A DNA stretch of 52,597 bases from NCBI GenBank assembly GCA_045105515.1, contig JBGCDR010000161.1, positions 1 to 52,597 of the forward strand. Direction: 5' to 3'. The first letter of the stretch is position 1; each line of letters opens with the position of its first letter. Positions 22,002-39,949 of the stretch are shown in pieces. The position numbers and the translations under genes were made by a program. The stretch comes from Oligoflexales bacterium. GTDB lineage: Bacteria; Bdellovibrionota_B; Oligoflexia; Oligoflexales; Bog-1112. The notes beneath the pieces are model-generated. The model was not told the origin of the DNA, made no database searches, and saw nothing but the letters and a program-made list of their open reading frames with translations.

Positions 22002-22562
22002 ATGAATCATCAGCGCTTTCCCTGGAAAATATATTTATTGAGCTTTGTTATGACAGCCTGCAGCACTATGTGTACTAAAAGTCATGAAGAAATGAGCGCC
22101 GAAGAAGTGGTGGAGACTTATCTAGATTATGCCCTTAATATTACAGATGTATCAGAAAAAGAAGAGCTGATGGAATATACAACAGGTAATCTTGAAGCAG
22201 CACTTGCTGGAGCGGATAATGAAACTTTTAGAAAAGCCTATGTTGAACGTAAGTATAAAATAACGCGTTTTTCTCTTTTAGAGAGGCGTGATAGAACCCC
22301 AAGGGAAACAGAAATTACTTTTCAACTGACTTACAAGGATATAGCAGATGGAAACACTGATGTAAAATCAGCTCCTGAAGTTACGACTGAAAATACGGTT
22401 GCTGTCATTAAAGAAAAAGGTAAATGGCTGGTTCGTGAAGTAGTTGGGAATAAAACTACGTTTGACTTTCCTACTTCAGAGCTATCTAAGATAACAGCTA
22501 AACCTGGAGAGATAAGCAATCCTGAATTAGACCAGGAACAAGGAGAAGAACCTTCTCCTTAA
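22002..22562 (+). CDS. Hypothetical lipoprotein
   Basis: Lipobox MTAC; C-terminal KEKGKWLV typical of NTF2-like lipoproteins. Confidence 0.6.
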   Translation: MNHQRFPWKIYLLSFVMTACSTMCTKSHEEMSAEEVVETYLDYALNITDVSEKEELMEYTTGNLEAALAGADNETFRKAYVERKYKITRFSLLERRDRTPRETEITFQLTYKDIADGNTDVKSAPEVTTENTVAVIKEKGKWLVREVVGNKTTFDFPTSELSKITAKPGEISNPELDQEQGEEPSP

Positions 22563-23752
22563 GAAGCTTTAGCAATCTCAAGGCCGCCTAAAAAGGTTAC
22601 CTGTCCCATTGTTCCAATATTGTTTGCTCGTGAAAACGAGGGTTTTCTTCCTCTTTTCGGTGATCTGAACTGGGCTACAGACTCAGCAAATTGGTTTGAA
22701 CCACCAGAATCTTTCAACTGACTTAAGAGATCTCTAAACATTGGTCTGATCGACCGATCACTCAAAATGTGTTCAATTAATTCATCCTTAAATTGACTCG
22801 GATCAAACTTTTGAATTGCAATTAGGAGTTCACGGGCGAGGGTTTTATGATTTACCTCAGACACTACTTTGAATAAAGCACCAATGTGCTGCATCATAAC
22901 TTTTTTAGAGTTTTCATGGTTTTTGACCTGTATCAAATGGTCAGTGAACGTTTGGATAAAAAGAGCAAAGCGTTCAGGTTTTTTCAGCATGTAGTACTTA
23001 AAAGTTTCATGTAATATTCTTTGGCAGTTACTATCGGCTTCCAGAGCAAACGGGAGGTTTTCAAGTAGGAACTGCAGGGAAATTGCCTCACTTTTTTTGT
23101 TAAATAAGTGGGAAAATAAGTGATCTAAGACTGTATGTCCAAAACGATTCATGATTCGATTAAACGAGGTTTTATCTGGTTTATGAGAGCAGATATAGCC
23201 AAAGTAATGAAGAAGGCTAAGTCTGATGCAAGTATTATTGTTGTTGCTCACAGACAGTAAGTAGGTAGTAATGTGGTCAAGTACTTCTTTAGCATTCGTA
23301 AACTGTTTTGGATGGCGATTATCATATTCCCTTATGGCGATGCCTAGCTCACAAATGAGAGCCACTGCCATTGAGTAGATTTCTTCGTCATGAGAATTTT
23401 CAGCTACTTCGCTAGTCAATGCAATTTCAACCAGTGCTCTGCATGCTAGATCATGATGTTCTTCTTCAAAGAGCTGATCGAGAAATGAAGCGATCAGAGG
23501 CTCATTGATAGCATTTGCAATCCAAATGAGTAAGCTTTCAACGATGATTTCGCAAGCTAGACGATCATTTGACCTTTCACATAGGCGTTTAGCAAAATGC
23601 CTTAAGACGTTACCTTGGTCCTCTTCTGACAAAGACCTTTTTAGTGTCCGCATCTCTTTCCACTTAATGATGACCCCGGAATCTACAAGAAGCAAAGCAT
23701 CTTCGACCGTTTTCACATCCTTCCAATATTTGTGTTCTGACCCAATCTCCAC
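22559..23752 (-). CDS. Hypothetical all-helical protein
   Basis: 397-aa ORF; RBS-like GGAGGG upstream; no recognised motif. Confidence 0.7.
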   Translation of the reverse strand: MEIGSEHKYWKDVKTVEDALLLVDSGVIIKWKEMRTLKRSLSEEDQGNVLRHFAKRLCERSNDRLACEIIVESLLIWIANAINEPLIASFLDQLFEEEHHDLACRALVEIALTSEVAENSHDEEIYSMAVALICELGIAIREYDNRHPKQFTNAKEVLDHITTYLLSVSNNNNTCIRLSLLHYFGYICSHKPDKTSFNRIMNRFGHTVLDHLFSHLFNKKSEAISLQFLLENLPFALEADSNCQRILHETFKYYMLKKPERFALFIQTFTDHLIQVKNHENSKKVMMQHIGALFKVVSEVNHKTLARELLIAIQKFDPSQFKDELIEHILSDRSIRPMFRDLLSQLKDSGGSNQFAESVAQFRSPKRGRKPSFSRANNIGTMGQVTFLGGLEIAKAS

Positions 23753-23821
23753 AGTACTGTCCCTCCAGCAACTTTGTTTCTAAAAATTTAAGTAGCCCCA
23801 CTACTATTCCGGTAAATTTTG

Positions 23822-24403
23822 CTAGAGAGCACTCTCTTGCAAAATCTGATTTGACTGATCAATTAACCCCTGGATCTCTGACTCAACTTTTTTATCTAAA
23901 GCAACAAACTTTAGACCATAGCCAACTGGAAATTTGCGATCCTGATTAAAGCGCATAACCTGGGCGCTTGCATTGAATGCTTGCAAAAATCCATCGATCC
24001 TGCAGGTCACCTTTAAGGTTTCCCCAACCTCAAAGATAGGGTCAGGAGTTTCAACAAACATACCTGAAGAAGATATGTTTACTCCTGCACCAATCACAAG
24101 CTGACCATTGTTGTGGACTATGATGCGCCCTTTTATTGTTGCCCTAGGTGCTCGTGCTTCTCTGACGATCGTGTCTGCATTCCCACTGGGAGTTGTGCCC
24201 AATTGTCCGTGACAATCTTCAAGGGGAAGCCAATCCTTCCAACCTACCTTGAATAGGTACGCATCTTGGGAGATCATATTAGTGCCAAGCATTTGCATGA
24301 TCTTGGGATGGTCAAATGGACCTTGTTGCTGAGATTGCTGATAGATATACCAAACTTGCTCGCTCATGAAAGGTTCCCTCAGGCTGTAATCCGTCTTTGG
24401 CAA
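23822..24403 (-). CDS. GYF_2 (DUF4339) + PilZ domain protein (start probably MSEQ at 24367)
   Basis: WYI...QQGPF...GWKDW; RAPR and NISSSG; GYGLKF. Confidence 0.85.
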   Translation of the reverse strand: MPKTDYSLREPFMSEQVWYIYQQSQQQGPFDHPKIMQMLGTNMISQDAYLFKVGWKDWLPLEDCHGQLGTTPSGNADTIVREARAPRATIKGRIIVHNNGQLVIGAGVNISSSGMFVETPDPIFEVGETLKVTCRIDGFLQAFNASAQVMRFNQDRKFPVGYGLKFVALDKKVESEIQGLIDQSNQILQESAL

Positions 24404-24501
24404 ACTTAGCTTTTTTTAAAAAAAGGCAAACCTGCAACATATGCCCTTGATTTTGGGCACCATACCCTAAATCGGCTAAAGTTGGCGGTCTCTTTAGTTA
24501 T

Positions 24502-25146
24502 ATGATAAAAACTATTTATTTTAATATTAATATTAAGGGGATACAGACTATGATCAAGGTGTTCTTGTATTTGTGCATTGCAATGCTGCACCTTAGTAGC
24601 AATTCAGGGCTGGCAAGAAAAAGTAATCAATACAGCAAACTAACGAATCACTGGCAAGATCCCGGCTTCGATATCAGCAAAGCAGTCAGTAAGGAAGATT
24701 GGTCATTTTTCATGCAAAGTGCCATAACATGGAAAAAACAGTTTTGGCACTATCACTGGAACCGAGGGAAATCCCTAGGAGATTGGTCATGGACCTGGCG
24801 CAGTGGGTGGTTGCAGGTTTGCAGCCAAGAAAGTAAAAAGTGGTGTACACAGATACTGCAAGCAGCTCTTTTTGACAAAGCTCTGGTAATCAGAGCTAAG
24901 GCTGCCCAAGTCTGGGGGCGACTTTATTCTGGTACTGGAAATCCGGCAATAGGTGGGATGCTAGAAAAGGCGTACCAGATGAAAGAAAATAACCGCAATG
25001 GAAAGCCCCTTTTTATTAAAAAGAGAATTCTCTTTGCTTTAAAGAGCATAGGAGGTGATAAGAACTTGATAACAGGAAGAAATTTAGCTAGTAGTAATGT
25101 GCAGATGCTAGACTATTGGCAGAGGCTTGCAAAGCCCAATGGCTAG
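24502..25146 (+). CDS. Hypothetical exported protein with HEAT-like repeat (start probably MIKVF at 24550)
   Basis: Signal-like segment; ALFDKALVIRAKAA HEAT-like motif. Confidence 0.55.
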   Translation: MIKTIYFNINIKGIQTMIKVFLYLCIAMLHLSSNSGLARKSNQYSKLTNHWQDPGFDISKAVSKEDWSFFMQSAITWKKQFWHYHWNRGKSLGDWSWTWRSGWLQVCSQESKKWCTQILQAALFDKALVIRAKAAQVWGRLYSGTGNPAIGGMLEKAYQMKENNRNGKPLFIKKRILFALKSIGGDKNLITGRNLASSNVQMLDYWQRLAKPNG

Positions 25147-25312
25147 GTTTGTTAAAAACATCGCCGAGCTAATTGATAAATTGTATCTTGCATTTTTATA
25201 TCAGTTACAGTACTTAAACTTCCTGTAACGAAATTAGCTATCTATAATTCAGCTAAAAAAGCATTGTAAATAGCTTATTACGTCTTGTTTCAGAGGCTTA
25301 TTGTTACATTGG

Positions 25313-25389
25313 GGAGGCGTAGCTCAGCTGGATAGAGCACTAGATTTCTAATCTAGCGGTCGCAGGTTCGAGTCCTGCCGCCTTCGCCA
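25313..25389 (+). tRNA. tRNA-Arg (anticodon TCT)
   Basis: Acceptor GGAGGCG/CGCCTTC, D-arm TAGCTCAGCTGGATAGAGC, anticodon arm CTAGA-TTTCTAA-TCTAG, T-arm GCAGG-TTCGAGT-CCTGC, encoded CCA; 77 nt. Confidence 0.97.
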
Positions 25390-25424
25390 CAATTTCAGGT
25401 ACTTATATCCTTCCTAGAGCAAAA

Positions 25425-25760
25425 ATGGATACAAACCATCACAAAAAAATTGATACAAATGTATCCAATAATGAAATCAGTGACTTACGCTTTGAAGAGC
25501 ATGCCCTTATAGAATTCTATTGCAGTTTACTTGTACTTAAGCCAGATACACCTAAATCGTATTTTCCTACCTACCGAGAAGATCTAAAGCGGTGGTGGGA
25601 CGATTCAAGTGAGGAATGGCGGTGCCAGATTTACAAGAACAACTTAGACTTACTGATTACATTAGGTGTATCTCGCCAAGCGGTACATACAGGAAATTTA
25701 GAATACAGGGACGGAACCGTGAAACAAAAAAGTGGTTTACGATCAAGTCAGAAGCCCTAG
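25425..25760 (+). CDS. Hypothetical protein overlapping the integrase 5' end
   Basis: 111-aa ORF directly after the tRNA; overlaps the next ORF by 145 bp, so one of the two ORF boundaries is doubtful. Confidence 0.35.
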   Translation: MDTNHHKKIDTNVSNNEISDLRFEEHALIEFYCSLLVLKPDTPKSYFPTYREDLKRWWDDSSEEWRCQIYKNNLDLLITLGVSRQAVHTGNLEYRDGTVKQKSGLRSSQKP

Positions 25761-26722
25761 ATGCAATCAATCAGTCCTATCTAAATAAGCATTCTTCTTT
25801 AGTTCAAGCAAAGCAGAAATGTGATGAACTTTTAAGAGATTTGTACAAAAAAAGAGACCAAGAAAAACCTATCCCAGTATTTCATTCCAATAATCTTAGG
25901 ATACTAGAAGATTACTTAGAATCAGAATACCCACCAAGAAGGAGAAGAAAGTTAGTTTCCTTCCAAAGTATTTGCTGGGATGTCAAAAGGGCTGTTGGTG
26001 CCCTAGAGAATCACCCCTTAGACACTACAGATCCAGAAGTCCTGCAAAATTTCATTGATACTAAGTTTGAAGAAGATCCTTCAAACCAGCGCAGGATAGT
26101 AATGTGGCTCAATAGTATTTTGAAATTTCTCAAAAAAGACTATCAATTGGTAAAGTTTAATCCAAATAATTCTGAAGTGAAATACTTAACACTTGCTGAA
26201 TTTAATCAAGTACTTCCTAAGCTTACCAATAATAAACTTAGAATAACAGCGGGAATAGCCTGGCATACCGGCTTAAGGTTTGGTGAGATATTTGGAGTTG
26301 AAGATCAAAACATCCACAATGATTCTTTGAGAGTGATTTCCCAAATGAACAAGGAGGGGTCAATTACAAACACAAAAACTAAGAAAGCTAGAGCTATTGC
26401 TTTGACACCAGAAGCTAGAAAGTATTTATGTGAATGGGTGCAAGTCCCTTACGAAGAAAAACTAGCTTTTCGTAAATATAAGGTATCTGAAAAGTTTAAA
26501 CAGGCTTGTAAGGAGGTATTCCCTCATAGGTCAAATAAACACCTCAAATTCCATGACCTAAGGCATTCCCATGCGATTCACCTTTTTGCTAAAGGGGTAA
26601 GTCTTGGTCATGTAGCTCAGCAATTGGGAAATAGTATTACTGTTTGTGAAAAACACTATGTTGGATATTGCTTGACTGCTGATAGCCTTAAAATAGTAAA
26701 AGATGCGCTCAAGGGTATTTGA
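25616..26722 (+). CDS. Tyrosine recombinase/integrase
   Basis: HTGLRFGE (R), TKT (K), FHDLRHS (HxxR), LGNS, HYV (Y); adjacent to a tRNA 3' end. Confidence 0.9.
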   Translation: MAVPDLQEQLRLTDYIRCISPSGTYRKFRIQGRNRETKKWFTIKSEALDAINQSYLNKHSSLVQAKQKCDELLRDLYKKRDQEKPIPVFHSNNLRILEDYLESEYPPRRRRKLVSFQSICWDVKRAVGALENHPLDTTDPEVLQNFIDTKFEEDPSNQRRIVMWLNSILKFLKKDYQLVKFNPNNSEVKYLTLAEFNQVLPKLTNNKLRITAGIAWHTGLRFGEIFGVEDQNIHNDSLRVISQMNKEGSITNTKTKKARAIALTPEARKYLCEWVQVPYEEKLAFRKYKVSEKFKQACKEVFPHRSNKHLKFHDLRHSHAIHLFAKGVSLGHVAQQLGNSITVCEKHYVGYCLTADSLKIVKDALKGI

Positions 26723-26870: not shown

Positions 26871-26884
26871 TGGTGGAGGCGGCG
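26871..26884 (-). repeat. att core, distal copy (tmRNA 3'-end 14-mer)
   Basis: Minus strand CGCCGCCTCCACCA, identical to 40114-40127. Confidence 0.85.
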
Positions 26885-27172: not shown

Positions 27173-27712
27173 TTGGCAAACATATTGTTAAATACAGTAA
27201 AATTTTTGGTGATAATAGGAGCTTCCTTAATGTTTCATGCTTCAGCAAGGTCACAAGTATTCTTTGGTATTCAAAATATTTCTAACAAAGAAGTGCTAAC
27301 ACCGATTACAGTTTATGGTCGATTAGAGGCTACCAACTGTCGGTTTGGCAATCTGGACTTATCTGGTGATGCTTTGTTTAATGATACTATAGTTAATAGT
27401 GTTTTCGTCAAAGGTAATTTTAGTGCTAAGAAACTGAGCACTAAAAAAATCGAAGTAGTTGGTAATGTTGAGACAGACTCTTCAACAATAAATAGAGCAT
27501 CCGTTACTGGAAATCGAGTGGTTTTTTCTAACACAAAATTAGATGAAATCATTCTGAGAAGTAAAAATGACGAAGAACAGGTTCTGATCTTAAAAAATCG
27601 TGTGTCCGTGGCCTCAAAAATTGAGTTTGAATCTGGTAAAGGGAAAATAATAGTCGATAGTACCGTAGCATTACCAGCAAATATAATTGGTGCAACAATA
27701 GTCAACATTTAG
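27173..27712 (+). CDS. Exported beta-solenoid (bactofilin/DUF4097-like) protein
   Basis: Signal peptide ending ASA; repeated VxG/LxG beta-helix turns. Confidence 0.55.
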   Translation: MANILLNTVKFLVIIGASLMFHASARSQVFFGIQNISNKEVLTPITVYGRLEATNCRFGNLDLSGDALFNDTIVNSVFVKGNFSAKKLSTKKIEVVGNVETDSSTINRASVTGNRVVFSNTKLDEIILRSKNDEEQVLILKNRVSVASKIEFESGKGKIIVDSTVALPANIIGATIVNI

Positions 27713-27826
27713 CAATAAAGTCATATTCTGTAAAAGGCCTTTAGGCAATAAGTTCAATGCTTGGACTGTAATAATTTGCTTTACCATATTCATATTTTTT
27801 TAAAATTTTCGAGAAGGATTCATGTA

Positions 27827-28000
27827 ATGAAAAACGGTTTATTTGTTAAGAAACTTAAGAAGCAAAGTAATGAAACTCCAGTAACATTAGCTTTTGGTGG
27901 CTGCAGTAAGAACGATAAAAAGGACGGAAAAGAAGGAAAAGATGGTGATGTTGGTGGCGTTGTTAAGCCAACCGAAGTCAAGGCTGACTTTCAATTCTAA
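27827..28000 (+). CDS. Putative RiPP precursor peptide (57 aa)
   Basis: AAGGA RBS then ATG at 27827; MKNGLFVKKLKKQSNETPVTLAFGGCSKNDKKDGKEGKDGDVGGVVKPTEVKADFQF; directly upstream of the modification operon. Confidence 0.7.
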   Translation: MKNGLFVKKLKKQSNETPVTLAFGGCSKNDKKDGKEGKDGDVGGVVKPTEVKADFQF

Positions 28001-28020
28001 CTAATAATAATTTTATTCTT

Positions 28021-28040
28021 TTAAGGGGATGTTCCCTTAA
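28021..28040 (+). promoter_or_regulatory. Stem-loop between precursor and maturase genes
   Basis: TTAAGGG-GATGTT-CCCTTAA; could stabilise or attenuate the precursor transcript (inference). Confidence 0.45.
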
Positions 28041-28063
28041 TTTCACATTGAGTATTTGAGTAA

Positions 28064-28594
28064 ATGCATTACATCCAAGCATGGGCTGTCGGTTTTAATG
28101 AGATTAAACATGACATTATACCTTTTGAAATTTTATATAAGTCTGGGCAAGGCAGGACAAATGTGACCGGCATTCTTAGTAATGAAGTCAAAAACGATAT
28201 AGAATTATGTTATCTCTCTGTACAGTATCAATGCTCAAGATTGAAATATAAAGTTCCAAATTACGATGTGCATGTAAATTTCCCGATTCGAAATGTATCA
28301 ATATTGGGGAGTTCGTACAGACTAGCCTTAGTTAATGCTTTTTGTCAAATGTCTACGCTTCCGAATAAATATAAGGCCTCTGAGTCATTGTTGACTGGAG
28401 ATGTTAGTTTGTCAGGAGACATATTTTCTGTTGATGGAATCAAACAAAAATATGATGCATTTAAGCAGCATGATCTTAAAAATTTTATTATACCAGAGGA
28501 AGCTCAATTTAGCTTTTCAAATGACCATCGAGTTATAAAAGCTAGCTATATCATTGAACTACTTGATATTAGCAAAGGTGACGTAGGATTATGA
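28064..28594 (+). CDS. Stand-alone Lon (S16) protease C-terminal domain
   Basis: GQGRTNVTG, DVHVNFP, GSS (Ser), LTGDVSLSGDIFSVDGIKQK (Lys), FIIP align by eye with the Lon proteolytic domain. Confidence 0.8.
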   Translation: MHYIQAWAVGFNEIKHDIIPFEILYKSGQGRTNVTGILSNEVKNDIELCYLSVQYQCSRLKYKVPNYDVHVNFPIRNVSILGSSYRLALVNAFCQMSTLPNKYKASESLLTGDVSLSGDIFSVDGIKQKYDAFKQHDLKNFIIPEEAQFSFSNDHRVIKASYIIELLDISKGDVGL

Positions 28595-29577
28595 AAAGAT
28601 GCTTTATTTCAGCTAAATTGCGCCCCTTAGTGCCAGGAGCAACTTTTGATACTCAGGTTACTGAGGAACTTGACGAATTTGTAGGGGATGAAGAATTTTT
28701 TCAGTCAGTATGTGGGGAAGGAATTCTTCTGTTATCTAGTGAATATGATAAAACATCTCTTCATTTCTACGAATATTGTGAGTCCAAAAAAATTCCTATT
28801 GTATACCTTACTTTCGAATATTTATTTGGAAGTAAAGTTTTGGTAGATCGAGTTGTTAGTAATGAGTTTCTTAAGCAGTTTAGAGGAATATACTACAGGC
28901 CTCCGTCAATAGATGATCACGTTATGGCACCATATGTAGCGGTTTTAGAGTCTTTTATTGAATTTTTTCCTGGCAATGTTGTAAACAGACCAAAATCATC
29001 TGTTAAGAATATTTCAAAGCCTTGGCAAATGGCCGATACTATTATGAAAGTGGGTACGGCTGTAAAGCCTATAAAAACTCTATTGACGAATAATCCTGAT
29101 GTTCTTGCTAGATGCAATTCAAGGCAAACCATAGCCAAATCTATTAGTGATGTAAGAAGCACTGTAAAGGTTTTGGGTGAAATTCAACATGATCAGAAAT
29201 GCAAGCGATTGCATTCTCCAATTCAAGTACAAAAAAAATTAAATGGCTTTAATATTAGAGTTCACGTTATAGGGCAAAATATTTCAGCAATAAAAGTCGA
29301 TTCAGATTCCATTGATTACCGGGTCTCAGATTTTCGGTCATTCTCAGAAATTTCGCTTCCAGAAGATGTGAAAAAGTGGTGTCTTCGTGCATCAAAAGCT
29401 GAAAAATTGGAGTTTGCAGGGGTGGATTTATTTCGATCAACAAAAGATCAAGCTTTCTATTGTTTCGAAATCAATCCGTCGCCTGGTTACCACTTTTACG
29501 AAAAAAATGCAAAATTGGATTATAAGATCACAAACTGGATTGTTGACTATCTAATCCCCAAATCGATTGGAGAATAA
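28591..29577 (+). CDS. RimK/MvdC-like ATP-grasp ligase 1
   Basis: VVNRP, NISKPWQ, IAKSIS..RS, QKKLNG.NIRVHVIG, DYR, GVDL, FEINPSPG; ATGA overlap with the upstream gene. Confidence 0.88.
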   Translation: MKRCFISAKLRPLVPGATFDTQVTEELDEFVGDEEFFQSVCGEGILLLSSEYDKTSLHFYEYCESKKIPIVYLTFEYLFGSKVLVDRVVSNEFLKQFRGIYYRPPSIDDHVMAPYVAVLESFIEFFPGNVVNRPKSSVKNISKPWQMADTIMKVGTAVKPIKTLLTNNPDVLARCNSRQTIAKSISDVRSTVKVLGEIQHDQKCKRLHSPIQVQKKLNGFNIRVHVIGQNISAIKVDSDSIDYRVSDFRSFSEISLPEDVKKWCLRASKAEKLEFAGVDLFRSTKDQAFYCFEINPSPGYHFYEKNAKLDYKITNWIVDYLIPKSIGE

Positions 29578-29583
29578 GATAAG

Positions 29584-30468
29584 ATGATCCTTTTGATAGG
29601 CAATGAAAATTGCCCTTATATTAAAAAAATACATAGACGAATACTTGATTACCACAAATCTGACTGCATTTGGCTAACACCATTTAATTTAATAAATGAC
29701 ATATTGATTGATGACTCTATCGATGCTTCCACAGGAATATCAATTAGGTGGCAGTATAAAGGAAGAGTTATCACCCCAGTGAATGTGGAACTTGTTATTA
29801 ACAACGTATCATATCTTCCTTCAGATTTTTTTCAAGACTTTGTCAAGGAAGATCGAAGCTATGCTGAGGCTGAATTTGTATCATATTTTTTATTTGCTTT
29901 AAGTCAGTTCAAGAACATTTTAAATAAACCTCATGGTGGAAGCCTAAGCGGATGGACGAAGTCCTTGCCCGCACAGTGGATCTATGTATCAAATAAATTT
30001 CCGGGTGTGGATACTCCTACATGGGCCTTATCTTCGGGCAAAAATCTTCCTCAATGGGTTATTGATGAGAATAATAATAACCTTATTGCAAATGAAAATT
30101 TGTTTAATTTGAGGTATTGGAGAGTTAGGGATAAACCACTACAGTGGGTTCAAGATAAAGATATGCTTTACTATAATAGACCGGCTGGAGTTCCAATTGT
30201 CATAAATGGAGTCGAAGAAAATATTTTTGTAGATATCGATTCCCCTATTTCATCCTCTGAGCTTCAAGATCTACTTCCTATTAACTTTCTCAGAGACATG
30301 GCTACAAATTATGGACTTTCTTTGTACCATGCTGTTTTCTTTTTTGATAGGGACAAGAATAACTTGACATTTGGTAGTATTCTTCCTTTTCTTCATTTAA
30401 ATGACAAGAAAGACTTTCAGCTGAATAATTCGATAATAGATTACCTTGTCACGGATACGAAGAAATGA
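29584..30468 (+). CDS. Degenerate ATP-grasp-like protein
   Basis: N-terminal MILLIG, EDRSYAEAEF and LNKP resemble the pre-ATP-grasp region of graspetide ligases; no ExN motif at the C-terminus. Confidence 0.6.
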   Translation: MILLIGNENCPYIKKIHRRILDYHKSDCIWLTPFNLINDILIDDSIDASTGISIRWQYKGRVITPVNVELVINNVSYLPSDFFQDFVKEDRSYAEAEFVSYFLFALSQFKNILNKPHGGSLSGWTKSLPAQWIYVSNKFPGVDTPTWALSSGKNLPQWVIDENNNNLIANENLFNLRYWRVRDKPLQWVQDKDMLYYNRPAGVPIVINGVEENIFVDIDSPISSSELQDLLPINFLRDMATNYGLSLYHAVFFFDRDKNNLTFGSILPFLHLNDKKDFQLNNSIIDYLVTDTKK

Positions 30469-31349
30469 AAAGGTGCCTTATCATTATAGCCTCTCAACAG
30501 GATGAAGCTGCTGTCGCATGGCATGAGATGTGCTTACAAATTGGCAGAAAGTCCCTTTTCCTTACTGTTGAAAGTTATAACCACGGCTGGACATTTCAAG
30601 GGTCGAACAGTAGATGTTTTATAAAGTCTGTAGACTTTGGCAAAATTCATTTGGTTGACGAGTCAATTTGTTTTTATACTAGAATTCCCTTTAATCTGCC
30701 AAAAAATTTTTTTTCTCTTAAAGTGCTTAACGATTTCCTTTCTTTAATTTCCTATGACCACGGCGGTTATTTTTTTAGAGGCGCAGTTGAAGCTAATTAC
30801 AATACTAAGCCTTTACAATTTCTACTTAGAGGGTGTTTTTCGTACCCTTTTACTTTAATAGGAAATGTTGGGTTAGTAAAAAAAAAATTGAGATCAGATT
30901 ATATTACTAAATCTTTGAGTTTTACTAGAAGTCAAGTTGTTGAACTGTCAAGTCCATTGCTGAAAAAATGCGAAAAGGTGATTCTTAATACACCTTCGCA
31001 GGTTCAGGAAAAGATTGTTGGATATGAGGAAAAAATTCATTTCTATAAAAAAAGAAATGGTGACTGGATATTTTTCCCTGTTCGTATTGATTCTGATTCG
31101 TGTGACTATCGGTATTCTGATCCAAATTTTAGTTCATCCAGTTGCGTTGATGGAGAGGGATTAGCTTCTTTTGCAAGCTATATTTTCGAACATTTGGGGT
31201 GCAGATTCTTTGACATAGATATTATTGTGAAAGAAGAAAAAAATTTTTTTTTGGAGATAAACTTGGCTCCGGTACCAACGTTTTTTGAAAGCAAGCTTAT
31301 TCAGAAAAATCAGTTCACTCAAGAAGTATTGATGGATTGGTTGTCATGA
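30465..31349 (+). CDS. RimK/MvdC-like ATP-grasp ligase 2
   Basis: NTKPLQ, ITKSLS..RS.V, QVQEKIVG, DYR, DID, LEINLAP; ATGA overlap. Confidence 0.8.
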   Translation: MKRCLIIIASQQDEAAVAWHEMCLQIGRKSLFLTVESYNHGWTFQGSNSRCFIKSVDFGKIHLVDESICFYTRIPFNLPKNFFSLKVLNDFLSLISYDHGGYFFRGAVEANYNTKPLQFLLRGCFSYPFTLIGNVGLVKKKLRSDYITKSLSFTRSQVVELSSPLLKKCEKVILNTPSQVQEKIVGYEEKIHFYKKRNGDWIFFPVRIDSDSCDYRYSDPNFSSSSCVDGEGLASFASYIFEHLGCRFFDIDIIVKEEKNFFLEINLAPVPTFFESKLIQKNQFTQEVLMDWLS

Positions 31350-32968
31350 TAAAACTAAATCTATTTTGTATAGAGAAAAAGAACTGGCTTCCCTTGACAA
31401 AAACGTCAGTGTTTTTTGTCTGCATGGTACCATTCCTCTTGTATTTTTCCAGTACCGTTGCGCTCTTGTTCCGAGCGGATGCCATAGATTTGATAACGAA
31501 TAAGAGTGGAGATGTGCAGAAGTTAGGTCTGCATTTTTTGAGTTATTTTAGTTTTATGGTTTTAAATGTTTTGCTTAATACCTTATTCGATAGGTTTTCT
31601 GAAAGAGAGGTACAAATTACCATTAGTAAATGGATTAAATTAGCTTTACCTTCTGGGTTTATGTCAGATATGTCAATTGAATCACCGACTATCTTCTATC
31701 AAAATATGGTTAGCAGGCTTTCCGAAATTAAAGCAGCTTATTTTCGAATAATTTATAAATTTTTTACTTTCGTAGCGTCTTTAGTATTTTTTGGATTTGT
31801 TGTGTGGAAAGAGGGTTATTATAAACCACTGATAATTAGTCCTATCATTTTTTTTATGGTAATGCTTTCTGAGCAGATCCTGAAGAAAGAATTTAGATCT
31901 AGGTGTAGAGAAGATCTTAAATCTGCTGATAGGTTTACAGAATGGCTGAAGAGTGTTTTTAGCTCTTGGGCTATGATAAGTCGAGTGTGGGCTCCTGATT
32001 TAATTAGAAAATGGTCATATCTTCACGTTGATGAGAAGCTTTATCATATGAAACGCCTTCTTAAGACCTCTACAGCAAGAGACACAATTCAGAGTCTATT
32101 CTTAAATTCGTCTACTATCGCTTTAGCTATTTTTTTCTTATATGAAGCTTACTGTGATTCAATCACAGTTGGAATGGCTCTTTCATGGCTGCCTCTTTGT
32201 AACTATATCAACGAAGGTGCTTTTAATATACTTGATTGCGTAAAATCTTTGACTGAAAAAAGGATAAAAGAAGAACACTTGCAAGGGTATTTGAGAGGCG
32301 TTTATGATAGGCAGTTTACAGTTCAGCATGATACATCGAGACTTACATCATTTGAAAAAATACCTTGGTCAGTTAATGTTTCATTGCCTGGTATTCAATT
32401 AATTGCAAATAGCAATCCAGGAATATATTGTGTTCGAGGCACTAACGGATCTGGAAAAAGTACCTTATTAAGGTATCTTTCTGGGATGCCTATAGATCCT
32501 CTTCTTAGAGAGAAGCTAGACAGATACGTTTCAATGTCTGGATTTGATTCTAAATTTACTTGCCTATTGCCCCAAGATCTTGCTCAGGTATATCCCTTAA
32601 AATCCCTAGGTCAGCACCTTTACGGTCCAGAGTGTCAACTACTTAACGAATATTTAATTGCTGAATGCAAAAGTAGATTCGCTGAATGGCAGTTCAGCAA
32701 AAATTTGGTTGCGCGTTGGATATTCGTTTTGAGGCGTATTGACAAATTATTCGATGAAAGATCGAAGCTATCTGGGGGCGAGAGCCGACTTGTTCAGATA
32801 GCTAGGATTTTGATTAGCAGATCACCGGAAAATACAATTCTCGTATTAGATGAACCAGAGCTTTCATTAGACGAAGAAAACAGAAAATTGGTTTTTGAGA
32901 CAATTAAAACTATTGGCCAAAAGTTCCCTTTAATAATGGTCACACATACGATTCAAAATTTAGATTAA
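31346..32968 (+). CDS. ABC exporter (TMD + NBD), no C39 peptidase domain
   Basis: TM helices, Walker A GTNGSGKST, LSGGE, ILVLDEP, VTH. ATG at 31346 overlaps the previous TGA. Confidence 0.85.
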   Translation: MIKLNLFCIEKKNWLPLTKTSVFFVCMVPFLLYFSSTVALLFRADAIDLITNKSGDVQKLGLHFLSYFSFMVLNVLLNTLFDRFSEREVQITISKWIKLALPSGFMSDMSIESPTIFYQNMVSRLSEIKAAYFRIIYKFFTFVASLVFFGFVVWKEGYYKPLIISPIIFFMVMLSEQILKKEFRSRCREDLKSADRFTEWLKSVFSSWAMISRVWAPDLIRKWSYLHVDEKLYHMKRLLKTSTARDTIQSLFLNSSTIALAIFFLYEAYCDSITVGMALSWLPLCNYINEGAFNILDCVKSLTEKRIKEEHLQGYLRGVYDRQFTVQHDTSRLTSFEKIPWSVNVSLPGIQLIANSNPGIYCVRGTNGSGKSTLLRYLSGMPIDPLLREKLDRYVSMSGFDSKFTCLLPQDLAQVYPLKSLGQHLYGPECQLLNEYLIAECKSRFAEWQFSKNLVARWIFVLRRIDKLFDERSKLSGGESRLVQIARILISRSPENTILVLDEPELSLDEENRKLVFETIKTIGQKFPLIMVTHTIQNLD

Positions 32969-32985
32969 AGAGGTAAGCTTGAAAA

Positions 32986-34233
32986 ATGATGATATTCAAT
33001 AATAATAAATTAGATAAGTTTTTAGACGATTCAAATAATCTTGAAGAGTCTGCTACGCTTCGCAATGCGTTTTCAGATATTGATCTTTGTTTAGCCGACA
33101 TCACAGATCTCTTTCGCAATATTGTTAAGCAGAAAGACCCTTACAATACATTAAAGATATACGTTGATAGAGCAATTAGACATGATTTTGAAGCAGAGGT
33201 TCTCGACAAGGAGTTCAGGTCAGAGGAAACTCTACAGGCATGGTGTGAGAGAGTCTTTAAGAGCAAAAACTATTGTCTTGAATCAAACCATGGCGATCAT
33301 TATTCTGAGATTCTCAGTCGTAAAATTGCAAGAGCAGTATCTCCTTTGTTCGAAAGAACTAAACTACCTCTTGGCGGGGTCGCCATTAGCATTTTTGCTG
33401 GTGACTATGGTTTCACTCCTTTTGGTGTTCATTATGACCACGATCTGAGTAGTGTTTTTCATTTTCATTTGGGGCCTAATAATAAAAAGATACATCTATG
33501 GGATAGAGAAACTTTTCTTAAGGAAACTGGGAGTATCAAACCTTATTTTGATGCTAAAAAAATCCTAAGTTCGGGTCATTCCGACATTATAGAAAAAAAT
33601 GATTTCTACAATTTGCCAGGTAATTATCATCATGTGGGTGAAACTCTTGGTTATTCTGTCGGTATAGCGGTGGCGCTCGTGCGGTTTAATCAGCAAGCTT
33701 TTTTTTCTAATGTACTTTCGTACCTAAATAATAGTATCTTGCGAGGAAAAGGGACCGATATTCTTGATCATCGTACCCACAATCTAACCACCTGTGGTGA
33801 GGAACAGTTTTATGTCCAGTTTCTTGAACATCTAACTTGCGATCTGACGGCTCCATTTGGAGAGGTGCTCAAACAAGCCTATCGGGATTATCGTCACTCT
33901 ATCTTGAGTAATGCGGGTCTTGTTACGGCCTCAAAACCAAGGAATATTGATAGCTCTACTTTCGAAAAATGTCAATTTATTCCAATAACCCCATTCAAAA
34001 TATCGTATTATAACGAGCATGGTAAGTTAATCTATTTTGTCCGACGAAATAAGTTTGTGTGTTCTTATCATCCTGATATCACTAAATTTTTCGACAAGCT
34101 GAATGATGGGAATACATTTTTGTTAAACCAAGTTTATTCTGAGTTGAAGTCTCTCCGAAAGGATCAGATTATAAATCTACTCAAAGGCATTGTTTCCTAC
34201 AATGGAATGGATTGTGATGTTAAAGCACAATAA
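32986..34233 (+). CDS. JmjC/cupin 2-oxoglutarate-Fe(II) oxygenase
   Basis: TPFGVHYD (HxD), FHLGP, YHHVG (distal His); C-terminal winged-helix-like extension. Confidence 0.75.
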   Translation: MMIFNNNKLDKFLDDSNNLEESATLRNAFSDIDLCLADITDLFRNIVKQKDPYNTLKIYVDRAIRHDFEAEVLDKEFRSEETLQAWCERVFKSKNYCLESNHGDHYSEILSRKIARAVSPLFERTKLPLGGVAISIFAGDYGFTPFGVHYDHDLSSVFHFHLGPNNKKIHLWDRETFLKETGSIKPYFDAKKILSSGHSDIIEKNDFYNLPGNYHHVGETLGYSVGIAVALVRFNQQAFFSNVLSYLNNSILRGKGTDILDHRTHNLTTCGEEQFYVQFLEHLTCDLTAPFGEVLKQAYRDYRHSILSNAGLVTASKPRNIDSSTFEKCQFIPITPFKISYYNEHGKLIYFVRRNKFVCSYHPDITKFFDKLNDGNTFLLNQVYSELKSLRKDQIINLLKGIVSYNGMDCDVKAQ

Positions 34234-34975
34234 ATCTATAAAACAGGTACTTCTATTACTCACCTTACTTGGGGTGCTTTCTGTCCCTTATGTCTTTATG
34301 AATGCGTGGTGGAAGTTCCTCCCCTCATTTATGGCAATTTGCTTATTTGTTTATGCTTATGATGTGAATAATTGGAAAGACCGTCTTGGCTTTAGTTTAG
34401 AGAAAATATCAATTTTGAGGACCTTCATTGCTTGGATAGTGGCACTAACAGCGACACCTTTTACGTTGTTGCTAGTTATGAAGTATGAAGGTTTAACCTA
34501 TGTCAAGGATGGCTTGACATTTTACAGATTTATGCCTTTTTTTCAAAGCTTAAACGAAGAAATTGTATTCAGAGCTATCTTTTTCAGCATCTGCTTTGAT
34601 AGAAGGTGGAATTCAAACTCTTTTAATTTTGCTATATCGGGGCTATTTTCCTTAACTCACGGATTGTTATACTTGTCTCTTGAAAATTATATGATCACTT
34701 TTGGTGTTTTAATTTCTCTTTTTCTCTTTTCATATTCTATGAATTGCATTTTTTTAGCCTGCAATAGTATTTTGCCCACATTTATCATTCACTTTTCATG
34801 GAACTTTTATCGATTCCCGAATCAATGGATTGATAGGTCTGGAAAACTTCTATCAGAGGCGGGATCGTTCGTAGCGATTGAAGGAAGTTTGATTGTATTT
34901 GTATTATCCGCTTTTATATTTTTGTCTAAGCATCGAATAGCGAATACTTTCCTTAAAAGCGAGATAGAAAGTTAA
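34217..34975 (+). CDS. CPBP/CAAX (Abi) intramembrane metalloprotease
   Basis: EEIVFR, FSLTH, HFSWN motifs; multiple TM helices. Confidence 0.88.
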   Translation: MLKHNKSIKQVLLLLTLLGVLSVPYVFMNAWWKFLPSFMAICLFVYAYDVNNWKDRLGFSLEKISILRTFIAWIVALTATPFTLLLVMKYEGLTYVKDGLTFYRFMPFFQSLNEEIVFRAIFFSICFDRRWNSNSFNFAISGLFSLTHGLLYLSLENYMITFGVLISLFLFSYSMNCIFLACNSILPTFIIHFSWNFYRFPNQWIDRSGKLLSEAGSFVAIEGSLIVFVLSAFIFLSKHRIANTFLKSEIES

Positions 34976-35389: not shown

Positions 35390-37706
35390 TCATTTCGATG
35401 TGTCCAATAGATCAGGATTCACTACTAATATCTTTTGTTTGCCCTGTGATTTAATCTTTAACCTATTATTCTCGCAAAGTATATCCACTGCGCTAGAAAA
35501 ATTGGCAGGTTTTCTCAGTCTAGTAGGGGTAATTGTTCTCTGTGTATCCCTTCGATTTATTTCCTTAGTATTCGACATCCTGCAACAGTCGAGAATCCAC
35601 GCCTCCATTGCTATTGCATTGCTAATTTCCTCGGGCAAAGCTAGTAAATTGAAGAACTTTAGCGACTCCCTTAAATGCCATTCAGCTATTGTACATGCAG
35701 CTTCCATTGTTGAATTCGAGATTGGGGTTTGAATATCAGATTCCAAAGCATGGAAATTGACAGCGATCCTAGCAGCATTATCAGCTGTCTTGCTAGCAAC
35801 ATCTTTTATATCCGCATATTCACCGCTACTGCTGAGTTGCTTTTCGATTCGATCGTGAAGCTTGATCCAGGTCTCCTTTGCGTGAGCATTTATTTCTATG
35901 GTTAATGGATCAAGCTTGCCATATTCATTAAACCTCAGCTCCTTGTTTATTATAGAGCTTATCCTGGCATTGTGTTTTTCTAGCTTTGGCCAATTTTCAG
36001 GAGGGTCTTGAAAAAACCTTTTGCCCTGTGTCGACTCTGGCCAGCTCAAAAGAAAGCGAGCAAAATAACCGATGCCTCGGGCCATTTTTCCAGATTTGTT
36101 GTTAAACTCCTGAATTATCGAAGGCTGAGCCTGTAATCCTATGGTTAACCTAGCGTCTGATACCCGAAATGATTGAGATGTTTTTCTACCAACAGACAAA
36201 GATCCACCATCCCATAAAACATTAAGGCAACGCTAAATTCTTCATAATGTTTTCCGAATTCATGGCTTGAGAGCCAAAAACCAAACCAGCCTCAGATGAT
36301 AATATGCCACTTGAGGGCCATTCTCGTGAGAGAGACCACGCTAAGTTTTCAGGTGTATCATCGCTTTTTAAATATTGTGGCTCGAGCGGCTTAATAGGTT
36401 TTTGCTTTTCAGTTTTTTCGAGAGAACTTTCAAGATCCGAGATTTTTTCTCCCTTTTTTGTTTTATGTTTTATGTTATCTATAATCGCTGATTTCTGGGC
36501 TTCCCAGGATAAGAGCTTTGATTGATATTCTTGCAACTCACTAATATTTTTAGATTCTTGTAATGTTTGGTATTCCATAATTGGTTTTTGAAAAAGCTTG
36601 TCGCAGGTAGATTTTCTTTCTCCTGACTCTGCGATAGCAAGCAAATACAAACTTGCGGGCCCTTCAAGGTTTTGCGCTCTCTTAACATTTACATGTCCTT
36701 GGGCTACGGTGGAGAGGACAGAGAGTGCTGAAGTAACGACAAGTGATATTGGGGCTTGAGTATAGGTCACGACCTCTTCAATAGCATCGCGTAGTAATTG
36801 TGGTAAAGATGACAGGGGATATGGTTTTGATTCATACTCGTCCACAAGAGAATTAGGTGTGGCCCATGTATCTCCGATTTTTTTTGCATTCAGTATCTGT
36901 CGGCAAACCTCATCAAGATTTGTAACGGAAGCAAGGTCATTAAAGTCATTGTGATTTTCGTCCCTAGGCTCGGGAAAGATGGGTTTCGCTAATTTGGCGT
37001 TATATAGCTGAGCAACTTCTGATGCAGCGATTAAGCCTGTATTTTCGTCGTTTTTGAAATCATCATCTGAACATATTATTAACTCAATATCAGGATAAAC
37101 GGTGAGCAGGCTGGTTATAGCTGGCATCATGTTACCTGAAGAAAAAGTTATGAGAGTAGGTAAATTAGTAGCTTCATGAATAGTTGCCCCTGTTGAGTAG
37201 CCTTCTGAGACACACACGGGCTTTGATTCATCAATCGAATCTATTATGTGATAACCTCCCTTCATCTTTTTGTTTTTTTGGAAAAATTTACACCCATTTC
37301 TGAAAATGATTTGTGAAGAAATGCAACTTTCACCAATTTTTATGGGTATTACTAAATTTCCAGCATTATCCTCTTTTATTCCGTGAGATTTTACGTTTTT
37401 TCTTACTAAGTATGGATGCGAATTGCTCGCGCATTTTAATTTTTCAATAGTTTGCAGGTCTCCTGGAAGCGATAGCGAACCGTCACATAAAGATCCCTCC
37501 CATTCTTTTGTTAGACCTCTTGAAAAGTCCCCAAAGGTCCCTTTGTGAGCACTATGGCGTATGCACCAACCAGCTTGGTTTTTTGATCCTTTACCTTTAC
37601 CCGGAATTCTGTACGGCTCTCCATATTTCATGTCATTGGGGGGGATCATTCCACTTTGCCTTACAGAATCTTCAAAACTAAGCCCATCGGAATTCCTAAT
37701 TTGCAT
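35390..37706 (-). pseudogene. TOPRIM primase + DUF3987 (YfjI-like) helicase, split by a single-base frameshift
   Basis: EGYSTG, DDD, NDFND (TOPRIM); SGERKS Walker A. Removing one G at 36226-36227 restores NLALLNVLWDG and joins the two ORFs into 771 aa. Confidence 0.85.
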
Positions 37707-37908
37707 TTTTATCCTCCTGTTTGACTTGACTTAAATTAGCGATTTTACATTCGATCCATTCCTCGATTTCATGCTCTAACCATCCAACAGATCTCCAACT
37801 CAGTTGAATCTGTTTTGGGAATTCTCCTTTTTCAATTAATTGGTAAATGGTTGATCTACCTAGCCCTGTGCGCGATCTAACTTCCGGTAAGCGCAAGAAT
37901 TTAAGCAT
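37696..37908 (-). CDS. alpA: AlpA-family regulator/excisionase
   Basis: LRLPEV..RTGLGRSTIY.....GEFPKQIQL..RSVGW; GGAGG RBS. Confidence 0.93.
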   Translation of the reverse strand: MLKFLRLPEVRSRTGLGRSTIYQLIEKGEFPKQIQLSWRSVGWLEHEIEEWIECKIANLSQVKQEDKNAN

Positions 37909-38040: not shown

Positions 38041-38769
38041 TTATAGTTCTTTAAAAATTTCCTTTGCATCTCGAAATGTTTGCTCCAGTGTTCGCTTTGC
38101 TAATCCTTCGTAACCATCGAAGGTCGAGGCGAGATAGGTGATCAAAGCGCTTTGATTTTGTATAGTATTCCGAGGGACTAACTCAAAAATCGTATCTACT
38201 AATGCAGATATTACTCTGTGCAATGATTTCTTTTTCCTTGGATTTAAGTCTTTTGAAATAATGTCGTATTTCTTGCTTATAGATATCAATTTATTTTTTT
38301 TTTCAGTAAGCTGGTTTAACAAATTTTCTTTTTCATGCTTCAGCTCATTGCATCTGGTGACCATTTCGTTTTTATCTTTATTTTCTGTTTCTTCTTCGTT
38401 GATTTCTTGTTCTGAAAATAGGTTTCGAGGGCGAAAGCGCTTGTACTTTTTTTTAATAAAACTTTTCAAATCACTTCTTTTAATTCGAAGCTCTTTTCTG
38501 CCAGTTGGTTCGAAACTCTCTAATGTCTCGTCAGTTACTGCTGATAAAATAATTTTATAGCAAATCGAATATCTCTTTTTCCCTTCTTTATCTTCTCCCG
38601 GCCAGTCGAAATAATAGATCTTTTTTTCTCGATCACTACATTTAACGAAGTCTGTGCCCTTGAGGTGGCTTGGAATTCTAATACCTGATATTATTGAAGC
38701 GGCTTCTTCTGAAGAATAATCAATCAAATCATCAATTAATTCACCGTAATCTTGTGTGTCATCTTTCAT
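38041..38769 (-). CDS. Hypothetical protein of the integrative element
   Basis: Lies between int and alpA and overlaps the integrase stop; coiled coil then HTH-like GLAKRTL. Confidence 0.7.
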   Translation of the reverse strand: MKDDTQDYGELIDDLIDYSSEEAASIISGIRIPSHLKGTDFVKCSDREKKIYYFDWPGEDKEGKKRYSICYKIILSAVTDETLESFEPTGRKELRIKRSDLKSFIKKKYKRFRPRNLFSEQEINEEETENKDKNEMVTRCNELKHEKENLLNQLTEKKNKLISISKKYDIISKDLNPRKKKSLHRVISALVDTIFELVPRNTIQNQSALITYLASTFDGYEGLAKRTLEQTFRDAKEIFKEL

Positions 38770-39949
38770 GGTTAGTTTTTAGTTCCTCCAAATAATTAGC
38801 CCAAACCTGCATCATATTTTTTCTTTCTTGAAGATGGGCTGTGCGGTTGTACGCCCTTCCATGGGGATCACGAACAGCGTGACCTAATTGGTGTTCTATT
38901 ATGTCGGGCCTAAATCCAAGAACCTCATCGAGAACTGTACGTGCCATTGCTCTGAACCCATGCCCGGTCATTTCATCTTTAGATATGTCCAATCTTCGAA
39001 GTGCTGCAAGGATAGCGTTGTCACTCATAGGCCGATTTCTGTCTCGTGCACTGTGGAATACATATGGGGAAACGTTTGTTATTGGTTTTATTGTATTTAT
39101 AATTTTGGTTGCTTGTTTGGAAAGAGGAACGATTAATGGTTGTTTTGTTTTCGACAATACAAATGACCATTCATTCGTTTTTAAGTCAAAATTTTCCCAT
39201 TTGGCATGTCTCAGTTCACCCGGGCGCACAAAAACTAAAGGTGCAAGTCTGAGCGCAGCTTTAACAATATCAGAGCCTTGATAACTGTCTAAAGCTCTCA
39301 ATAAAGGTCCGATATTTTTTGGTGAAGTTATTGCTGGAAAATGATTTTTAGTTGCAGGTGTCAATGCTCCCTTTAAATCCGAGCAAGGTTCAAAATCTAA
39401 TCGACTTGTGGCTATAGCGTAACGGAAAATTTGGCGGCAGCGGCTCAAGATCCTGTGTGCGGTTTCATTGGTTCCCCGTTCCTCGATTCGGCGAATAACT
39501 TGAAGAATGCCAATTGGCTTAATCTTGTCAATAGGAGTGTTTCCAATCCAAGGAAATACGTTAAGCTCAAGACTGCGAATAATTCTTTTAGCGTGCGCGG
39601 CGTTCCATGCTTCCTCGTTTTTGTTAAACCATTCGCGAGCAATAATTTCAAATCCGTTTTCAGAAGACTTTCTCAGCGCAGTTTTGAAAGCTTTCTTGTG
39701 TTCGCTTGGATTAATACCGCCTGCTAAGAGGGTCCGGTACTCTTGATGTTTGGTCCTTGCATCTTTTAGAGTGACATCTGGGTAAACGCCAAGTGACACC
39801 TTCTTTTCTTTGCCTGCATAACGGTACTTGTAGCGCCACCATTTTCCGCCGGACTTAGAAATTTCTAGGTGTAACCCTCCTCCGTCAAACAACTTATAAG
39901 TTTTTTCTTTTGGCTTCGCATTCTTGATCTGGGTATTTGTCAAAGGCAT
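38759..39949 (-). CDS. P4-family tyrosine integrase
   Basis: MPLT...DGGGL...WRYKYR...LGVYP arm-binding domain; VRPGELR, HGFR, QLGH, AYNR. Confidence 0.96.
   Translation of the reverse strand: MPLTNTQIKNAKPKEKTYKLFDGGGLHLEISKSGGKWWRYKYRYAGKEKKVSLGVYPDVTLKDARTKHQEYRTLLAGGINPSEHKKAFKTALRKSSENGFEIIAREWFNKNEEAWNAAHAKRIIRSLELNVFPWIGNTPIDKIKPIGILQVIRRIEERGTNETAHRILSRCRQIFRYAIATSRLDFEPCSDLKGALTPATKNHFPAITSPKNIGPLLRALDSYQGSDIVKAALRLAPLVFVRPGELRHAKWENFDLKTNEWSFVLSKTKQPLIVPLSKQATKIINTIKPITNVSPYVFHSARDRNRPMSDNAILAALRRLDISKDEMTGHGFRAMARTVLDEVLGFRPDIIEHQLGHAVRDPHGRAYNRTAHLQERKNMMQVWANYLEELKTNHER

Follow-up and report, generated by a model that had tools for sequence, protein, structure and literature searches.

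A mobile graspetide-like gene cluster in which a ligase may carry its own recognition motif

Graspetide ligases such as PsnB, MdnB/MdnC and CdnC bind an N-terminal leader on their precursor and, to our knowledge, require no pseudo-enzyme partner. Dependence on a leader is the central logic of the enzymes that make RiPPs, peptides of ribosomal origin that are altered after translation. Closest to the locus reported here are two uncharacterised groups: branch 8 of Makarova et al. (2022, PMC8939145), for which the covered parts of that survey give a truncated, catalytically inactive ATP-grasp protein, peptidase neighbours and no predicted precursor, and group 32 of Carter et al. (2026, PMC13097080), again as far as the covered parts go. 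What they share with our locus is a ligase accompanied by an inactive ATP-grasp protein and a peptidase of an unrelated family. The locus lies in a 52,597-nucleotide stretch of the genome of an Oligoflexales bacterium (assembly GCA_045105515.1, contig JBGCDR010000161.1; hereafter the window), in which positions 27173-34975 are carried by an integrative element. An initial annotation had described a graspetide-like, peptide-linked, mobile cluster, and our analysis supports that description; the genes very probably work like a graspetide pathway. The unusual feature that it overlooked is a recognition motif on the ligase itself. The best explanation, which we consider probable, is that of a natural leader-fused ligase forming Lys-Asp/Glu lactams, the product being matured by a Lon-type protease and an ABC exporter.

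Like branch 8 and group 32, the window has a catalytically dead ATP-grasp protein (here full length) beside a ligase and adjacent peptidases of unrelated families (Lon_C and Rce1), but its small precursor, its protease of the Lon_C type, its second ligase and its enzyme-borne motif set it apart from them. The precursors given for group 32 are mixed automatic picks, and no recognition motif is named for it or for branch 8 in the covered parts of the two publications. Two of our loci, L016 and L003, match group-32 rows there by organism and neighbouring open reading frame (ORF), and the window's clade is their sister (ultrafast bootstrap, UFBoot, 97). Myxomiditide (PMC12848669, parts covered) likewise brings several ATP-grasp proteins together, with a MyxD1-MyxD2 hetero-complex and Lys-Glu lactams on KxxE repeats. 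However, it belongs to the microviridin clade and has a PFFxRF leader, and MyxD2 is catalytic when partnered, whereas the window's pseudo-ligase lacks catalytic motifs. In corallotide (PMC13097080, same parts), Lys-Asp isopeptide rings are followed by a 2-oxoglutarate (2OG)-Fe(II) oxygenase, a model for the putative JmjC step here, but that system has a single TIGR04187 ligase, a PF13640 oxygenase and a large precursor with KxxxD repeats. The novelty that had been seen in the number of ligases and in the oxygenase is therefore not supported, as myxomiditide already has four ATP-grasp ligases and corallotide an oxygenase.

Regarding the leader, engineered in-cis, in-trans and follower leaders function in RiPP enzymes (PMC13003496, parts covered). 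They resemble our locus and its relatives in placing the recognition peptide on the enzyme or leaving it free, with a leaderless core; those arrangements are engineering strategies, whereas the ones in the window's lineage are genomic. In the covered parts of that work an enzyme-fused leader is so far described as a laboratory construct, and in the open-access literature we found no natural leader-fused graspetide ligase, no occurrence of the motif string and no Lon-type RiPP protease. Three motif strings were also absent from 11 supplement files of Makarova et al. (PMC8939145). The recognition tetrapeptide R-P-F-G of PMC13003496, as given in the parts covered, resembles the end of the F-I-x4-R-P motif described below.

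Two of the three ATP-grasp proteins of the window, G1 and G3, have the ATP-binding lysines, D-[FY]-R and E-x-N of graspetide ligases, the same as in PsnB (PDB 7DRM), MdnB/MdnC and CdnC, the best sequence and fold matches to G1. The third, G2, lacks both D-[YFW]-R and E-x-N, so that what had been counted as three ligases are two ligases plus a pseudo-ligase. G1 has a Pfam match to RimK-type ATP-grasp, and G2 and G3 have none; G3 and G1 share 29% identity across 149 residues (E 1e-8). Searched against the PDB, a profile of G1 and 21 homologs found PsnB (E 2e-42), CdnC (1e-33) and another four graspetide ligases (the weakest at 5e-26), with RimK below these six structures at 2e-11, and Foldseek with the G1 model (predicted local distance difference test, pLDDT, 90) put PsnB, PruB, CdnC and MdnC on top. 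RimK and LysX are neither the best match nor the tree position. With 27-51 bits against NCBIfam cut-offs of 350-475 (TIGR04184/04185/04187), G1 also falls outside the microviridin (MvdC/MvdD) and TIGR04187 families.

An IQ-TREE phylogeny built on 274 columns from 48 core domains, after removal of N-terminal extensions and with a RimK-like outgroup, joins the stand-ins for characterised groups in one clade (84) and the window-related ligases in another (UFBoot 97), the references being genome-derived family members rather than characterised enzymes (L178, L186 and L187 above cut-off; L171 and L179 by resemblance). The window-related clade splits into two sisters, ligases of the follower type defined below (89) and the window's side (90), and a FastTree of 132 sequences concurs. 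By these comparisons the cluster lies outside every characterised graspetide group tested. In seven double-ligase fusions, G3 is always closer to the first domain and G1 to the second (7/7 each), and a G3-like domain is fused to a G1-like one in L173 and L174. One tree reference, L171 (2-1551, in the same-order genome G024), is itself a plesiocin-like cluster with T-T-x-A-x-G-E-E repeats.

The pseudo-ligase is a nearly constant companion of these ligases. A word-index search with G2 found no homolog besides itself, and it was resolved through its neighbours and through its Atlas model, which is ATP-grasp-like (template modelling, TM, score 0.75-0.78 to named clusters). A G2-like gene lies directly upstream of G1 relatives in 134 of 160 loci, and in 119 of the 120 whose upstream sequence exceeds 1.5 kb, by a profile whose seeds were the G2 of the window and 13 of these loci; profile-profile comparison supports the pairing (98.9%), and eight proteins are G2-G1 fusions. 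A 30-residue stretch rich in Lys and Asp/Glu (scoring 14, the value of the window's peptide, or more) occurs in the 1.2 kb before G2 in 85 of 110 loci, as against 2/99 and 1/75 control stretches. The gene adjacent to G2 contains it, frequently as a tail at the C-terminus; among the 32 of 85 carriers scanned, seven are M6, S8, C13 or astacin peptidases, six belong to other families and 19 gave no match. The initial annotation had named a grouping with RimK, or homologs lacking a conserved adjacent peptide, as arguments against its reading; neither was found, the ligases lying outside RimK and the tract being conserved upstream.

The peptide, Lon_C, G2 and G1 stand together also in Paenibacillus profundus (L001) and, beside an integrase, on a Bacillus wiedmannii plasmid (L175), so the same gene set returns in distant taxa, and a rearranged kit is conserved in L172-L174. 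Because they are fused or recurrent in L001, L175, L173 and L174, we regard the two ligases, the pseudo-ligase, the exporter and Lon_C as one kit. L172 (4798-12750), L173 (3202-9698) and L174 (1427-8346) are same-order relatives, with Arg-Asp repeat precursors in L172 and L174. Their set includes an arginase (PF00491), fused in L174 to a double ATP-grasp protein; loci of the L172/L174 type possibly convert Arg to Orn and then form Orn-Asp lactams.

The feature that sets the window apart is a short motif, F-I-x4-R-P. In most relatives it belongs to the substrate: it follows the Lys/Asp/Glu-rich tract, as a C-terminal follower, in 80 of the 84 carriers that remain when L001 is held out, at a median of 42 residues from the end. 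A matrix built from 72 distinct follower motifs, none of them from the window's clade (99.9th percentile of the null, 3.2), finds it at the N-terminus of G1 and of its five closest relatives, all six scoring 4.1-17.5; 17 further G1 relatives stay under -7 within the first 40 residues. Only three of 4,498 ORFs of the genome, G1 included, reach 4.1 in that region. Among the 150 best matches in a 50%-identity library, 24 have the motif within the first 20 residues (five of them query rows) and four elsewhere. The follower profile is aligned by hhalign to G1 residues 3-19 (E 7e-4), and I6, R11 and P12 are invariant in all 26 rows of a hand-picked, extension-bearing set, whose overall identity is 25-36% and whose linker varies freely. 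The ligases of follower loci never have it at their N-terminus (0/53).

Two other arrangements exist. In L172, L173, L174 and L177 the motif is on a separate small ORF (scores 10.3-20.9), and ligase and precursor are without it; in the covered part of Carter table si_004 (PMC13097080), several ungrouped precursors bear it as an N-terminal leader, one of them before a window-like core. The motif is found in four positions, namely substrate leader, substrate follower, separate ORF and ligase N-terminus, and once per readable locus. The window's precursor (motif score -17.6) and that of L001 lack it by the same matrix, and at the level of sequence the motif is mutually exclusive between substrate and ligase. 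L177 (3531-7031 of AP017967.1) is an endosymbiont plasmid locus with a core nearly that of the window, a pseudo-ligase and two 2OG dioxygenases; its separate motif ORF of 41 aa overlaps the start of a ligase annotated as 'glutathione synthase'. In the ligases P0109 and P0106 the motif lies C-terminal to the ATP-grasp domain, and P0109 runs on into a PqqD (RiPP recognition element, RRE) domain. Another ORF, conserved and of about 98 aa, with no Pfam match, lies 3' of follower-type ligases (L016 10639-10935; like ORFs in 23 of 160 loci), and in the covered rows it is the 'precursor' chosen in several group-32 entries (PMC13097080).

Where the motif would bind is suggested by a model of the complex of a follower-type relative, L016, made of the ligase, the pseudo-ligase and a 44-residue follower. 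The trio scored 0.80 and the best of three controls 0.00. Among solved complexes, 116 of 157 reach the mark used, and among mismatched pairs, 2 of 215, figures that apply only roughly to author-built alignments such as ours; runs agree in at least 68% of contacts, with a partner pLDDT of at least 56. The contacts involve the motif itself, ligase residues 167-196 and pseudo-ligase residues 85-97, corresponding to G1 182-211 and G2 D90/Y93/A94/E97. Pseudo-ligase residues 85-97 form a D-R-x-Y-A-x-x-E helix, the best-conserved part of the pseudo-ligases and intact in G2; the dead twin would be kept because this helix contacts the motif. The model supports docking of the motif at the ligase/pseudo-ligase interface, and the better order of G1 residues 11-20 (pLDDT 83 vs 64-69 in flanking blocks) is weakly consistent with it.

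Put together, G1 and G2 would form a heterodimer in the cell, with a pocket at the interface that takes up a short peptide, F-I-x4-R-P. The substrate supplies this peptide in most relatives, as a C-terminal follower or sometimes an N-terminal leader; in the window it is joined to the N-terminus of G1 through a linker of about 30 residues. As the enzyme would carry its own activating signal, the 57-aa precursor would therefore need none. G1 would then use ATP to link Lys to Asp/Glu side chains in the core DKKDGKEGKDG, each lactam costing 18 Da, and G3 would probably dock on the same scaffold and likewise form lactams. Lon_C would cleave the precursor, perhaps at the F-G that precedes the core, the ABC exporter would secrete the product, and the JmjC enzyme may hydroxylate it. 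In its broadest form, the proposal is that one motif unites a large graspetide lineage in which it has moved among four positions, and that the window holds a constitutively self-activated ligase/pseudo-ligase heterodimer that forms Lys-Asp/Glu lactams on leaderless peptides, with a Lon-type protease and an ABC exporter in place of a C39 transporter; we put this at slightly better than even.

Several observations weigh against this proposal. The window's G1 has the lowest motif score of the six, two unrelated ORFs of the genome score higher, the hhalign probability is just 27%, and 9 of 53 pseudo-ligases pass 3.2 somewhere, so the motif score has false positives. The ligase-fused motif has readable neighbours in three loci only (the window, L001 and L175), and in L175 the frame that encodes it (6989-7108) lies upstream of the annotated ligase start, lacks ATG, GTG or TTG and was omitted by the annotation. 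The placement of G3 in the IQ-TREE phylogeny has a support of only 37. The complex was folded for L016 rather than for the window's proteins, from author-built alignments, and since ligase-leader complexes exist in the PDB its pass may reflect likeness to these. Lastly, the L-F-x-x-x-L at the start of the window's precursor, common to L001 and L175, could serve as a conventional leader.

Some of these data could also be read, for the same pathway, in terms of a motif that serves G1/G2 as structural clamp or auto-inhibitory plug and not as activator, the precursor being recruited by its own N-terminus or by a C-terminal aromatic-x-Phe. The model does place the motif between the two subunits, the G2-G1 fusions mostly have a degenerate version in their linker (one of eight passes the threshold), and the precursors of the window, L172, L173 and L174 share a C-terminal [FY]-x-F and F-G before the core. 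However, in follower- and leader-type loci the motif comes with the substrate, which fits recruitment and activation, and we regard a clamp or plug as unlikely.

The precursor itself had been described as a 57-mer rich in K, D, E, T and S. The length and the richness in K and D stand (K12 D5 E3 S2 T3), but Ser and Thr are nearly absent after the GG (K7 D5 E2, S1 T1), and because of this the peptide is Lys/Asp-rich rather than Ser/Thr-rich. It is an adjacent ribosomal precursor with donors and acceptors, conserved beside homologs, as expected of the class. Cores like this one occur in L177, L173, L001 and in published table rows, and F-G (or Y-G) before the core is common among relatives, from which we infer a possible cut at that position. 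The precursors of L001 (8016-8516) and L175 (4953-5432) combine the Lys/Asp core with a YciI domain in a fusion, hence their annotation as 'YciI family protein'. In the covered part of si_004 (PMC13097080), cores DKGKD or DKKDGKEGKDG are found in group 35 and ungrouped rows, several with an F-I-x4-R-[PD] N-terminal leader; there the motif is on the precursor, in the window on the ligase, and none of these rows is characterised in the parts covered. The peptide in row 20615 is identical to that of the window and comes with two synthetases but without a group, so that it was already predicted in the 2026 supplement and, in the covered parts of the main text, is not discussed.

A conventional graspetide, in which the 57-mer would have an N-terminal leader (L-F-x-x-x-L ... 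G-G) and the G1 extension would be the vestige of an old gene fusion, could draw on the L-F at residues 5-6 that recurs in the L001 and L175 precursors, on the GG that precedes the core and on published leaders with a short hydrophobic motif (PMC8939145, parts covered). It seems improbable to us: a vestige would hardly keep I6, R11 and P12 unchanged in 26 of 26 rows next to a freely varying linker, and the L173, L174 and L177 precursors have no L-F start. Nor do we find it plausible that the ligases cross-link Lys/Asp tracts between chains, or add free amino acids in the manner of RimK, without intramolecular rings. The low-complexity cores have no fixed spacing of donors and acceptors, and many are tails on proteases, where cross-links could anchor or polymerise the enzyme; but the DYR motif and the PDB ranking are graspetide-like, related ligases make KxxE and KxxxD lactams intramolecularly (PMC12848669 and PMC13097080, parts covered), and an exporter with a protease indicates a small secreted product.

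Maturation in the proposed leader-fused pathway would fall to the stand-alone Lon_C protein. Its Ser84 and Lys129, which correspond to the catalytic dyad of Lon, are at positions invariant in 10 of 10 members of the Lon_C family, including nine further stand-alone proteins, in agreement with S16 membership. A Lon_C gene is present in L001 and L175, and the domain is fused to the C-terminus of the ABC exporter in L173 and apparently in L174. The window's exporter has no Pfam match to a C39 peptidase domain and does not belong to the C39 transporters; its homologs are found in L173 (E 5e-15) and L174 (E 1.5e-13).

The remaining genes are less tightly bound to the ligases. Of the proteins initially named Lon, JmjC, ABC and CAAX, three are confirmed by Pfam, whereas the oxygenase, without a match in Pfam or PDB sequence searches, is JmjC-like by Atlas features and structure (TM 0.78-0.80 to clusters with 65-68% JmjC_2 members) and by its H-x-D...H triad. 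An ATP-grasp protein accompanies it in none of the four homolog loci examined, which are its nearest; close homologs occur in two other genomes of 131 in the phylum and in 31 plasmid records, and the oxygenases of L172 and L177 are of other types. A tailoring role for it would follow from gene position, as would a role in the pathway for the CAAX protease, which has the motifs EE123, F153xxxH and H201xxxN. The first ORF has no Pfam match and no PDB fold match at E<=0.001, and homologs of it and of the CAAX protease were found neither in the 160 ligase loci nor in six close loci. The complete pathway that had been proposed is therefore not borne out for the JmjC, CAAX and first-ORF genes. On a Nostoc plasmid (L203, 4603-4776), a JmjC homolog lies 3' of a 57-aa peptide with four G-L-K-T-G-V-R-P-D repeats and no ATP-grasp gene nearby; this peptide is a candidate for another RiPP.

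Nine genes had been placed after the peptide. There are nine plus-strand ORFs, but the count includes the 179-aa ORF and the peptide, which leaves seven genes 3' of the latter; the ATGA stop/start overlaps at 28591, 30465 and 31346 are present. The stem-loop reported after the peptide is an 8-bp hairpin (28021-28040) no better than shuffles (z -0.75) and absent from the terminator-like sites of a terminator scan, and as a chance-level hairpin it was ruled out as a terminator. A promoter scan was uninformative (34 found, 32.2 expected).

Table 1. Predicted features of the cluster and of its surroundings, in positions of the window
Feature	Position	Strand	Basis or remark
tRNA-Arg, end of host synteny	25313-25389	+	G001 match stops here
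Second tyrosine integrase, outside the 14-bp repeats	25616-26722	+	PF00589, E 1.8e-14
Left att, 14-bp core of tmRNA 3'-end type	26871-26884	.	Direct repeat
179-aa all-beta protein, hydrophobic N-terminus	27173-27712	+	Model pLDDT 75, all strands
Candidate precursor, 57 aa	27827-28000	+	F-G-G at 23-25, core DKKDGKEGKDG, C-terminal F-Q-F
Lon_C (S16) stand-alone protease, candidate for maturation	28064-28594	+	PF05362, E 1.4e-13; Ser84/Lys129 dyad
G1, intact graspetide-synthetase-like ATP-grasp ligase	28591-29577	+	K143, K183, DYR242, EIN293
Built-in recognition motif, G1 residues 1-16 (F5-I-S-A-K-L-R-P12)	28591-28638	+	Matrix score, hhalign, pLDDT
G2, pseudo-ligase	29584-30468	+	No DYR or ExN; D90-R-S-Y93-A-E-A-E97 retained
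G3, second intact-looking ligase	30465-31349	+	K115, K149, DYR214, EIN264; no motif extension
ABC exporter without C39 peptidase domain	31346-32968	+	PF00005
JmjC-like Fe(II)/2OG oxygenase	32986-34233	+	Atlas features/structure; H149-x-D151, H215/H216
Rce1/CAAX-type membrane protease	34217-34975 (ORF from 34190; ATG 34217)	+	PF02517, E 3e-8
DUF3987 primase/helicase-type gene, two ORFs	35390-37706	-	Pfam positions 1-168 and 182-363 on separate ORFs
AlpA regulator/excisionase-like	37696-37908	-	PF05930, E 5e-22
P4/CP4-57-type integrase	38759-39958	-	PF13356, PF22022, PF00589
Right att, 32-bp copy of tmRNA 3' end	40114-40145	-	Whole tmRNA on other contig C132

The cluster is cargo of an att-bounded element, as initially described: a 14-bp repeat (26871-26884 and 40114-40127), of which 2e-5 copies are expected from composition, brackets it together with the integrase, AlpA and the split DUF3987 gene. 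This gene content is that of a tmRNA-targeting P4/CP4-57-like element, the primase gene being split; Rfam gave no tmRNA in the window. It is hardly credible that the genes are island cargo that has decayed or come together by chance and encodes no functioning pathway, for although the element's DUF3987 gene is split and window-type loci are rare (1 of 401 genomes in the L001 family and 2 of 95 in the window's order, among the matches listed, in scans of genome collections that are samples), the cluster ORFs and active sites are all intact, the junctions are coupled and the gene set recurs in distant taxa.

The DNA match to the same-genus genome G001 (94% complete, 710 contigs), in which the cluster has no match, covers 22018-25390 and then ends. 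The second integrase is probably part of an element of its own at tRNA-Arg; the tRNA 3' end was not found in a second copy. Three more copies of the tmRNA 3' end (27-35 bp) in G000, on contigs C48, C132 (the whole gene) and C377, suggest several islands of the tmRNA type. Downstream, an imperfect direct repeat (40129-40275 and 41240-41371, 89-97%), which starts in the tmRNA-end fragment, flanks a cytochrome c gene (40330-41334) and is probably the trace of a further insertion or duplication. A low-GC stretch (42324-50617) encodes a DsbD/thioredoxin fusion, a radical SAM protein and another protease of the Rce1 type; the start of a group II intron lies at the contig end (52489-52597).

If the proposed reading is true, a natural lineage that holds all the arrangements of a leader would make its role, activation versus tethering, directly testable. 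The retention of an apparently dead ATP-grasp twin would be explained, as half of a pocket, and the window's lineage would offer ready-made leader-free enzymes for lactam stapling. The motif can also guide the search for precursors that were overlooked or wrongly picked in published surveys of branch 8 and group 32.

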